A stretch of DNA of 64,000 bases. Origin: an uncultured Anaerolineaceae bacterium (GTDB taxonomy: Bacteria > Chloroflexota > Anaerolineae > Anaerolineales > DRMV01). Of this stretch, positions 61,082-62,979 are shown piece after piece. The translations under genes and the position numbers were made by a program. The notes under the pieces are model-generated. The model did no database searches, was not told where the DNA came from, and worked only from the letters and a program-made list of their open reading frames with translations. Where the stretch lies: assembly GCA_964446575.1 (NCBI GenBank), contig CAYUOX010000013.1, forward strand, positions 69,430 to 133,429. Direction: 5' to 3'. How positions within the stretch are numbered: position 1 is the stretch's first letter; each line of letters begins with the position of its first letter.

Positions 61082-62338
61082 ATGTTCACCCGCGCGGAGG
61101 CTCGCCATTTCAAATGCTTACGGCGCGTGGATGTCATGCTACGCCCTTTCAACATTCTCATTGGTCCGAATGCCAGCGGAAAAAGCACGTTTTTGGATAT
61201 CTGGCAATTCTTAGCCGACGCGCTGGAGCATGACATCGAAGAGGCCGTTCGTCGGCGAGCGAATGCCCTACGCGAATTATCCTGGCGGTTGCCTAAGGAA
61301 TCTCCTGGCTTCGAACTCGGGCTGGAAGCAGATATCCCTCCAACGATCGAAACTCGTTTTCGACGCGTGCGCTACGAAGTGCGGGTAGGGCTGGACCCTG
61401 AAGAAGGTATCGTCGTTAGTGCCGAAAATCTGTGGCTTTTGAACCCAGCAGCCAAAGCCCAAACCCAGCCCGCGGCTCGACCGCTGTTTCCCCTGGATGC
61501 CGAAGATACCCCGATCGTCCGTTCACCACGAGCCCGCAAGCCCAAGGCCATGGACTTCCATTTGGTCGTGCGAAAAGTGGAGACCAGTGGCAACGATTAC
61601 TTCCGTTCAGAGAGTACGGGATGGAACATCTCGTTCCGCCTCTCGCCCAAACGCTTAGCCCTGTCGGGTGTCCCCGAAGACGAAAAACGCTTCCCTGTTG
61701 CCCTGTGGTTTCGCGGGTTCCTTCGCCGCGGCATTCACATGCTGCATCTCAACAGCCGCCTCATGCGTCGTCCTGCTCCGCCGGACTTGACGCGCACCTT
61801 TCAGCCCGACGGTTCGAATCTCCCCATTCTCGTGCGCTGGTTGCAAGAGGAGCATCCCCAACGCTTTGCCTGGTGGGTGGACCATCTGCGCACCGTATTG
61901 GACGATATGCGCACCATCGAAGTCCACCAGCGCCCCGAAGACCACGCCCTCTATCTGGTCGTACAATACGCGAACGGCATCGGCGTTCCCTCGTGGATGC
62001 TTTCTGACGGCACGCTGCGGCTTATGGCACTGACTTTGATCGCCTACCTGCCGCTCACGGACCAGGTTTTTCTAATTGAGGAACCGGAAAACGGCATTCA
62101 TCCCCGGGCCATCGAAGCCGTTTACCAGTCGCTCCGCTCCGTATACACAGGTCAAATCTTCTTGGCCACGCATTCGCCTCTCTTCATGGCCTTGGCCAAG
62201 CCCGAAGACTTGCTCATTTTCGGCAAAACAGAGCAAGGGGCGAGTGACATTGTGCGGGGCAATGAGCACCCCGAACTCCAGTCTTGGCGTTCTCAACCGA
62301 CACTGGATGTGTTGTTTGCGGCGGGAGTGCTGGAATGA
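61082..62338 (+). CDS. ABC/SMC-like AAA ATPase (AAA_21/COG4637-like; OLD/PARIS/Septu-type ATPase architecture)
   Basis: Walker A GPNASGKST, signature-like LSDGTLR, Walker B/D-loop FLIEEPENGIHP and H-loop LATHSP, with an approximately 270-aa insert between the half-sites. AGGAGG RBS. GC is only about 52-57% in hand-counted 60-nt lines. Confidence 0.8.
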   Translation: MFTRAEARHFKCLRRVDVMLRPFNILIGPNASGKSTFLDIWQFLADALEHDIEEAVRRRANALRELSWRLPKESPGFELGLEADIPPTIETRFRRVRYEVRVGLDPEEGIVVSAENLWLLNPAAKAQTQPAARPLFPLDAEDTPIVRSPRARKPKAMDFHLVVRKVETSGNDYFRSESTGWNISFRLSPKRLALSGVPEDEKRFPVALWFRGFLRRGIHMLHLNSRLMRRPAPPDLTRTFQPDGSNLPILVRWLQEEHPQRFAWWVDHLRTVLDDMRTIEVHQRPEDHALYLVVQYANGIGVPSWMLSDGTLRLMALTLIAYLPLTDQVFLIEEPENGIHPRAIEAVYQSLRSVYTGQIFLATHSPLFMALAKPEDLLIFGKTEQGASDIVRGNEHPELQSWRSQPTLDVLFAAGVLE

Positions 62339-62979
62339 ACCTGGATTTGGTGGCCCTGGTCGCCGACGCGGATATGCAAAACACCTTGAAAACCCTGCTG
62401 GCGCAGCGCGCCCCTGCCCTGGGGATTCGCTCCGGACTCCGCTATCGGACTTTACGGCATCCACAGCGAGACCCTGGCGTCGTGCATCAGGCCGCGGCTT
62501 TTCTGCGACCGTATCTCGGACGAGCCCAACATGCCCTGGTGATGCTGGACTGGGAAGGTTCTGGGGCTGAAAACCGCTTTGCCGATCCCGAAGGGCTGGA
62601 GGCCGATTTGGAGACCGCTTTAGCACGTAACGGCTGGCCCCGCGAACAAGCGGCCGCTATTGTCATTCAGCCGGAGTTGGAGGTGTGGACTTGGGCTTCG
62701 CTGCAACACTTGGCCCAAGTGATCGCGTTGCCCCGCGCGGCGGTACGCGCGGTGCTGGCCCAAGTCGAGCGGGACGAACACGGGAAACCCCTGCGTCCCA
62801 AGGAGACTTTAGGGAAACTATTGCGCGCGGCCCGGCATCCTCATTCGCCCGCTTTGTTCGTCAAGTTAGCCCAACGGGTCGGGCTGCAGCGTTGTCAAGA
62901 TCGCGCGTTTCACAAACTGCGCGCCACTCTACAGCGATGGTTCCCGGCTGCATATTCGGCGCGCCCACCCGAATCTTGA
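62335..62979 (+). CDS. Hypothetical 214-aa protein, possible Toprim/DUF4276/RloB-like nuclease partner of the upstream ATPase
   Basis: ATG overlaps the ATPase stop (ATGA). Ordered acidic strand-end motifs LVALVADAD, LVMLDWEG and VIQPELEVW. No family could be verified without an HMM search. Confidence 0.55.
   Translation: MNLDLVALVADADMQNTLKTLLAQRAPALGIRSGLRYRTLRHPQRDPGVVHQAAAFLRPYLGRAQHALVMLDWEGSGAENRFADPEGLEADLETALARNGWPREQAAAIVIQPELEVWTWASLQHLAQVIALPRAAVRAVLAQVERDEHGKPLRPKETLGKLLRAARHPHSPALFVKLAQRVGLQRCQDRAFHKLRATLQRWFPAAYSARPPES

Follow-up and report, generated by a model that had tools for sequence, protein, structure and literature searches.

A MAD3-MAD4 gene pair, predicted to code for an ABC ATPase plus a Toprim-like nuclease subunit, inserted upstream of a HerA gene in an uncultured Anaerolineaceae bacterium

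The gene pair and its family

The window analysed here is a stretch of 64,000 nucleotides (nt) from an uncultured Anaerolineaceae bacterium (contig CAYUOX010000013.1, positions 69,430 to 133,429), which contains a pair of adjacent genes coding for an ABC ATPase and a small protein, members of the MAD3 and MAD4 families named after MADS, the methylation-associated defense system. The open reading frame (ORF) of the small protein (Table 1) is real, and its product starts with MNLDL. The ATG of MAD4 overlaps by 4 bp, as ATGA, the TGA stop codon of the ATPase gene, and is preceded by a Shine-Dalgarno sequence (GGGAG) situated 7 nt 5′ of it. An alternative start at a TTG codon (position 62284) is unlikely, because both the homologues and the NCBIfam model start at the MNLDL region.

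Judged by its sequence, the product of this gene is an ordinary member of the MAD4 family. It scored 193.8 bits (E 3.4e-57) with the NCBIfam equivalog model NF047734, entitled 'methylation-associated defense system protein MAD4', above the curated cut-off of 160 bits; the match is full length, spanning residues 4–204 of the protein on positions 2–206 of the 206 in the model, and the gene lies directly 3′ of a MAD3 ABC ATPase gene. When 1.84 billion representatives were searched with a profile, 1,711, 1,337 and 679 of them matched at E ≤ 1e-3, 1e-10 and 1e-30, respectively. The initial annotation, made by a model from the sequence alone, had called the protein an orphan and a possible new variant; the former is wrong, given the 1,337 representatives and the curated model, and the latter is not supported. 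A collection clustered at 90 % contained 60 homologues, the best of them with 55 % identity. No MAD4 homologue was found in a phage collection, and a plasmid collection contained a single one, in a canonical MADS operon. A Pfam search with the protein returned nothing at E ≤ 0.1. Family, fold and biochemistry were already published between 2023 and 2026, and annotation pipelines already name MAD4.

The ATPase matched the NCBIfam model NF047739 (MAD3 AAA-family ATPase) over its full length with 477.6 bits (cut-off, 420) and PF13304 with an E of 6.5e-31. Its ATPase motifs are intact, with a Walker A motif GPNASGKS (residues 28–35, including K34), a signature LSDG (307–310), a Walker B motif VFLIEEPE (329–336) and an H-loop THS (363–365). 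Matches of this protein to GajA, Old and AriA are at the domain level only. In PADLOC, the ATPase matched HEC-01A (PDLC04182, 2.1e-49) and mad3 (9.7e-31), and the small protein matched HEC-01B (PDLC04200, 6.3e-5, residues 61–206 on positions 71–209 of 218) and mad4 (1.9e-3), the HEC-01 models being ranked above mad3 and mad4 for both proteins. HEC-01 (Hma-embedded candidate 01) pairs an ABC ATPase with a TOPRIM protein inside Hma systems (bioRxiv 10.1101/2024.01.29.577857; PADLOC-DB v2), and the two-gene unit found here has both of these components, HEC-01A and HEC-01B. [quoted passage not shown]

MAD3 and MAD4 are two separate ORFs in different frames, and not a fusion of the OLD type (classes 1 and 2). 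A putative natural fusion of both proteins (629 aa) in the related genome G006 (L020:1492-3381, minus strand) was rejected, since the reading frame of MAD3 is lost after GQIF, and with it the H-loop, which points to a frameshift or an assembly error. This frameshifted pair adjoins a gene for a DUF1156-type DNA methylase.

Conserved residues and relation to Toprim-superfamily proteins

An AlphaFold2 model of MAD4, built from an alignment of 35 homologues (pLDDT, the predicted local distance difference test, 91.7; predicted template modelling score, pTM, 0.86), shows a β-α-β-α-β-α-β domain followed by a helical domain, corresponding to a Toprim-like α/β domain of approximately residues 1–120 and a helical domain of approximately residues 121–205. 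The initial annotation had pointed out three motifs with a hydrophobic strand and acidic residues, LVALVADAD, ALVMLDWEGSG and AAIVIQPELEVWTW; all three occur in the protein and, in the model, they lie at the C-terminal ends of strands β1 (residues 3–9), β3 (64–72) and β4 (106–111). The residue numbers assigned to them at that time (D10/D12, D71/E73 and E113/E115) are each one too low; counted from M1, the residues are D11/D13, D72/E74 and E114/E116.

Conservation was evaluated in 150 cluster representatives that are 31–48 % identical to MAD4. Residues D72, E114 and W118 are present in all 150, and D46, K151 and C187 in 149; position 116 is Glu in 143 and Asp in seven, and D11 is kept in 137. 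Of the acidic positions singled out in the initial annotation, D11, D72, E114 and E116 are thus conserved, and only in part D13 (82 of 150) and E74, a position that is acidic in 106 sequences (Glu in 86, Asp in 20) and His in 22. Two of the conserved residues, D46 and K151, were absent from the original list of motifs. In relatives this divergent, the conservation of the motifs is far beyond chance.

These residues can be compared with those of the MAD4 protein of Pseudomonas aeruginosa (PaMAD4), whose complex with MAD3 was solved by cryo-electron microscopy as a 2:2 heterotetramer (PMC13662399, NAR, October 2026). PaMAD4 consists of a Toprim-like domain and a helical domain, with a Mg2+ pocket at the MAD3-MAD4 interface formed by D12, D55, D81, E83, E119 and E121, with K164 beside it (PMC13662399). 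At the sequence level, the equivalents of the six acidic residues are D11, D46, D72, E74, E114 and E116, and the lysine beside the pocket would be either K151 or K156. The proteins share the NCBIfam equivalog family, a length of ca. 210 aa, the order of domains, the pocket pattern D, D, DxE, ExE, K, and an upstream MAD3 ABC ATPase with the Walker A residue K34. The residues were mapped through the MAD4 protein from a plasmid of Piscinibacter gummiphilus, which is embedded in a MADS operon and has 36 % identity over 165 residues in BLASTP; the alignment pairs D46, D72, E74, E114 and E116 with D54, D80, D82, E120 and E122 of the plasmid protein, and this numbering is one residue off that of the PaMAD4 pocket residues D55, D81, E83, E119 and E121.

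DUF4276 (PF14103) is a domain of the Toprim superfamily that occurs in NsnC from Menshen and is partnered with AAA_15/21 ATPases. The MAD4 protein (P0001) did not match PF14103 at E ≤ 1 nor reach its gathering score of 30.2 bits. Nevertheless, 18 of 35 family members did match it below that threshold, the best of them over its full length and with 24.8 bits, and an hhalign comparison of the MAD4 alignment with a DUF4276 alignment, made from 20 Chloroflexota genomes, produced a match with 82 % probability and an E of 1e-5 over 138 columns. In it, D72 corresponds to the near-invariant Asp of DUF4276 after β3, and E114 and E116 to the glutamates of its HEFE motif, the second of which is invariant; this bears out the resemblance to an ElW-like segment of such proteins that the initial annotation had noted. 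The homology therefore covers the β3 Asp, the ExE/HEFE segment and the C-terminal helical domain, and the two families also have equal length and the same type of partner ATPase (AAA_15/21). They differ in the N-terminal acidic residue, which is an invariant Glu in DUF4276 (VEGQTE) and an Asp in the MAD4 family (LVAD). Of 401 Chloroflexota genomes, 64 gave a match to DUF4276; the present genome is not among them.

Both DUF4276 and RloB are members of the Toprim superfamily, and Mad4 is described as a homologue of DUF4276 (PMC12065111). The suggested likeness to RloB was not borne out at the family level, since there was no direct match to RloB (PF13707) at E ≤ 1, and the relation of MAD4 to RloB is at the superfamily level only (PMC12065111). 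By contrast, the broader proposal of a divergent Toprim/DUF4276-like nuclease that partners an ATPase of the OLD/AAA_21 type agrees with the NCBIfam assignments to MAD4 and MAD3, PADLOC, the hhalign comparison and published work (PMC13662399; PMC12065111). The sequence-only inference was correct, and the precise family name, MAD4, can take its place.

Genomic context and insertion site

An AAA_21 ATPase gene (417–431 codons) was situated directly upstream of MAD4 in all ten homologue contexts examined, with an overlap of 4 bp in eight and of 1 bp in two; together with the ATGA overlap seen here, this upholds the coupling to the ATPase, by stop and start codons, noted in the initial annotation. 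The conserved unit is the pair and not the wider neighbourhood. None of the ten contexts is a MADS operon: Spirochaeta thermophila and others have housekeeping genes as neighbours, whereas Moorella humiferrea, a metagenome-assembled genome of Desulfobacterales, a short contig and genome G006 have helicase or methylase genes, resembling those of Hma or DISARM, beside the pair. As in HEC-01, several close MAD4 homologues thus adjoin genes for SNF2 helicases or for DUF1156 or N6_N4 methylases, and adjacency to Hma genes was found in the relatives L016, L020 and L067. A 583-aa protein encoded upstream of the pair in L018 was considered as an analogue of HerA and is unrelated. In three diverged metagenome genomes the pair occupies the same site, flanked by an adh_short gene on one side and two CoA-transferase genes on the other (L019:8724-10645, L064:7724-9636 and L066:5031-6943), which suggests that the two genes have been kept on their own for a long time.

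The homologue from P. gummiphilus (L063, NZ_CP136338.1, 46.9–64 kb) is situated in a plasmid operon with genes for a helix-turn-helix protein, an N-6 DNA methylase, an AAA ATPase, the MAD4-like protein, a hypothetical protein, a 1,391-aa kinase and two hypothetical proteins, which is the canonical MADS order. This operon is annotated mostly as hypothetical and adjoins rep/par genes.

In the window, no mad1, 2, 5, 6, 7 or 8 genes neighbour the pair, in contrast with the MADS operon of P. aeruginosa, and the host is an Anaerolineales-like member of the Chloroflexota and not a proteobacterium. In particular, there was no linked N6-adenine methyltransferase (mad2), which in MADS serves to mark self and non-self, among the neighbouring genes, and MAD6, MAD7 and MAD8, which are mandatory within 10 genes in the MacSyFinder model of the MADS authors (bioRxiv 10.1101/2023.03.30.534895), were not found within that distance. 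Neither helicase nor methylase genes were found among the neighbours, and a search of the genome, which is 96 % complete, for DUF1156 (PF06634) was negative; the pair is thus outside any Hma system, unlike HEC-01. Elsewhere in the genome, the mad5 and mad7 (PDLC04139) models had no match, the latter being also silent in 14 of 14 control genomes; the mad6 model gave kinase-domain matches on other contigs only, and the mad2 model gave domain-level matches only (ca. 140 of 492 positions), as well as matches in all 14 controls. The PADLOC models mad1, mad2 and mad6 gave generic domain matches only, and were discarded as probes for a hidden MADS because they are uninformative, with matches in 11–14 of the 14 control genomes.

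What is new here is the insertion of the pair, with a conserved promoter-like region on one side, a HerA gene conserved in the lineage on the other, and an empty site in a congener, as well as the lack of other MADS genes and of an Hma system in the searches above. In the genome G003, of the same genus, fcl and the HerA gene are adjacent, with ca. 57 unrelated bp in place of positions 61031–62989; the insert of ca. 1.96 kb holds exactly MAD3 and MAD4 (Table 1). Among 60 relatives, MAD4 was found in only one (G006, 51 % identity, with the frameshifted MAD3), and in none of five congeners. The G+C content at third codon positions is 0.647 in both cassette genes, as against 0.762 in fcl and 0.822 in the HerA gene. 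Neither a recombinase nor a repeat was found at the ends of the cassette. The parsimonious explanation is that a bare cassette of two genes was gained recently and is now first in the HerA transcription unit. The clean empty site indicates that the pair of ATPase and nuclease genes alone is the mobile unit; together with the stand-alone context, this precise site is the modest addition that this locus makes to what was published.

Table 1. Coordinates of the MAD3-MAD4 cassette and of its boundaries in the 64,000-nt window
Feature	Coordinates	Strand	Details and basis
MAD4-family Toprim-like (DUF4276-related) predicted nuclease subunit	62335..62979	+	214 aa; NF047734, AlphaFold2 model, conservation, hhalign
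MAD3-family ABC (AAA_21/AAA_15) ATPase	61082..62338	+	418 aa; NF047739, PF13304, PADLOC
Promoter-like element ATTATACTACA...GGTAGAATTGA	60997..61030	+	fcl/MAD3 intergenic region; common to G003, there directly upstream of the HerA gene
Cassette left end: 51-nt leader	61031..61081	+	Shine-Dalgarno sequence (GGAGG) 9 nt 5′ of the MAD3 ATG; homology to G003 stops at ca. 61030
Cassette right end: 10-nt spacer	62980..62989	+	GAGG precedes the HerA ATG; homologous to G003 again from 62990

The promoter-like element is AT-rich and situated between fcl and MAD3, which are divergently oriented, just left of the boundary of the insert, and belongs to the host locus and not to the cassette. It probably drives transcription of the cassette and the HerA operon, and is perhaps bidirectional; a scan with the sigma-70 consensus called no promoter.

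The genes fcl, wzm and wzt are upstream of the insert, and genes for HerA, bactofilin, a sulfotransferase and Wzy_C are downstream. The HerA-like ATPase (DUF87 and HAS barrel domains, 582 aa), which starts 10 nt after MAD4, weakly matches mad8 (1.4e-16). It was considered as a third component of the system and rejected: its homologues with ca. 60 % identity in Anaerolineales and Chloroflexota number more than 4,500, its gene block is present in relatives without the pair, and in the congener it is directly beside fcl. The HerA gene heads a tightly packed block (62990–64000 onward; L002:2420-8105) with the genes for bactofilin, the sulfotransferase, an unknown protein and the O-antigen-ligase-like Wzy_C, which is kept in relatives and represents an association of HerA, bactofilin and glycan genes.

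Proposed mechanism and alternative interpretations

Taken together, we consider it very likely that MAD4 is a Toprim-like, DUF4276-related, metal-dependent nuclease subunit coupled to the MAD3 ABC ATPase, and that both constitute a self-contained, OLD-like module of the HEC-01/'MADS3-4' type, presumably directed against phages. PaMAD4 is insoluble by itself and PaMAD3 has no ATPase activity alone, this activity being switched on by the binding of MAD4; the complex binds double-stranded DNA and, in the presence of Mg2+ or Mn2+, nicks and linearises plasmid DNA (PMC13662399). By homology to these proteins, MAD4, translationally coupled to MAD3, would most likely assemble with it as a 2:2 complex, being stable only when bound to MAD3, whereas the MAD3 dimer would close and become competent for ATP hydrolysis only with MAD4. 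The composite surface of both proteins would bind double-stranded DNA, and the pocket composed of D11, D46, D72, E74, E114, E116 and a lysine (K151 or K156) could bind Mg2+ or Mn2+ and nick or cut the DNA. The analysis shows the family membership of both proteins, the conservation of residues, the conserved coupling of the genes and the insertion with its empty site; we infer the stoichiometry of the complex, the cleavage of DNA, the role in defence and its trigger.

Several observations weigh against this interpretation. Profile-profile and structural searches had been proposed with the initial annotation; the former yielded the DUF4276 match described above, but the latter gave no significant match to Toprim. 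With the full-length model as query, Foldseek retrieved nothing from the PDB at E ≤ 1e-3, and the Toprim protein ranked highest, the T7 primase (1nui_B), was not significant (probability 0.90, E 0.13, root-mean-square deviation of 4.0 over 108 columns). A model of the domain alone (residues 1–132, pLDDT 89.5) matched generic α/β folds in the PDB with template modelling (TM) scores below 0.5, and sequence searches of a PDB copy that contains no MAD4, with either the protein or the family profile, had no match. Weak matches in BFVD included a topoisomerase, several primase-helicases, 'Toprim-like' proteins and a viral RloB-like protein (TM 0.43), and the β-α-β-α-β-α-β order of secondary structure in the AlphaFold2 models is consistent with Toprim; the assignment to this fold would nevertheless lean on the published PaMAD4 structure and not on our own fold searches. 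As the initial annotation had remarked, the canonical Glu of Toprim after β1 is not evident, its place being taken by D11, at which no Glu occurs among the 150 relatives, and the second acidic residue of the Toprim DxD motif after β3 is only partly conserved, the first, D72, being invariant. The mapping of residues to PaMAD4 is, besides, indirect, through the protein from Piscinibacter. In the P. aeruginosa complex, cleavage was lowered only to a modest degree by the single mutations D55A, D81A and K164A, and it was not linked to the hydrolysis of ATP (PMC13662399), so that the family's catalytic centre is not firmly proven. HEC-01 did not protect Escherichia coli against any phage assayed (bioRxiv 10.1101/2024.01.29.577857), and a defence function of the pair described here is likewise putative. 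Finally, the co-expression of PaMAD3 and PaMAD4 is toxic (PMC13662399), which raises the question of how a cassette without partners avoids self-damage and how stand-alone copies escape autoimmunity.

A tentative extension, to which we give somewhat less than even chances, is that MAD3 and MAD4 are an autonomous, methylation-independent two-gene defence system, of a class similar to OLD, whose bare 2-kb cassette moves without a recombinase and came to lie here between a host promoter and the first gene of the conserved HerA operon. If so, its trigger or its self-protection must differ from those of MADS, because the P. aeruginosa pair is toxic alone.

The pair could instead be an inactive or dependent remnant, i.e., a MAD3-MAD4 arm split from a MADS or a methylation system of the Hma type and conferring no defence by itself. 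In P. aeruginosa SMC4386, MADS was described as an operon of eight genes, of which mad2-4 and mad6-8 are required for defence, MAD3 and MAD4 being accessory in the detection model (bioRxiv 10.1101/2023.03.30.534895); this, the lack of defence by HEC-01 alone in E. coli, the SNF2 helicase and/or DNA methylase genes beside the pair in ca. four of ten homologue contexts, and the genome search without matches to mad5, mad7 or DUF1156 would all fit a remnant. Yet the ATPase motifs and the pocket residues are all intact, stand-alone pairs recur among housekeeping genes, the boundaries of the cassette enclose exactly two genes, and the fact that three diverged genomes keep one such pair in a shared syntenic position speaks for selection acting on the two genes alone. 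We regard a remnant as unlikely.

Somewhat less likely still is a PARIS-like mode of action, in which the ATPase senses a phage protein and the nuclease then targets RNA, such as tRNA, instead of DNA and brings about abortive infection. The pair resembles AriA-AriB from PARIS and proteins of the OLD family (P2 Old, GajA and the effector of retron Eco8) in having an ABC ATPase of the AAA_15/21 type and a Toprim nuclease whose activity is controlled through assembly; PARIS, moreover, has the Toprim partner as a separate protein, AriB cleaves host tRNA, and a logic based on sensing a trigger is attractive where no methyltransferase is linked to the pair. In OLD and GajA, however, ATPase and Toprim are fused in one chain, and AriB is a DUF4435 protein of ca. 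35 kDa, from a different Toprim family, that acts within a large propeller complex (AriA6-AriB2) unlike the 2:2 complex of MAD3 and MAD4. The only biochemistry for the family is the nicking and linearisation of DNA and the binding of double-stranded DNA.

Finally, a mainly structural MAD4, acting as activator or adaptor of the ATPase and with an acidic cluster for binding metal or for the interface, or with a generic Rossmann-like fold instead of Toprim, would agree with the generic α/β folds found by Foldseek, the modest effect of mutations in a pocket that lies at the interface and the activation of the MAD3 ATPase by MAD4, but is very improbable considering the invariance of D72 and E114 and the near-invariance of D46, E116 and K151 in such divergent relatives, as well as the homology to DUF4276, which has the canonical Toprim Glu.

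Returning to the MAD4 family as a nuclease subunit coupled to MAD3, the equivalog name of NF047734 overstates the context, because the ten sampled contexts and the copy described here are all outside MADS operons, either stand-alone or beside helicase/methylase systems. The public names of the homologues vary: the protein from M. humiferrea (P0023) is called 'methylation-associated defense system protein MAD4', and that from S. thermophila (P0005), 'DUF4276 family protein'.

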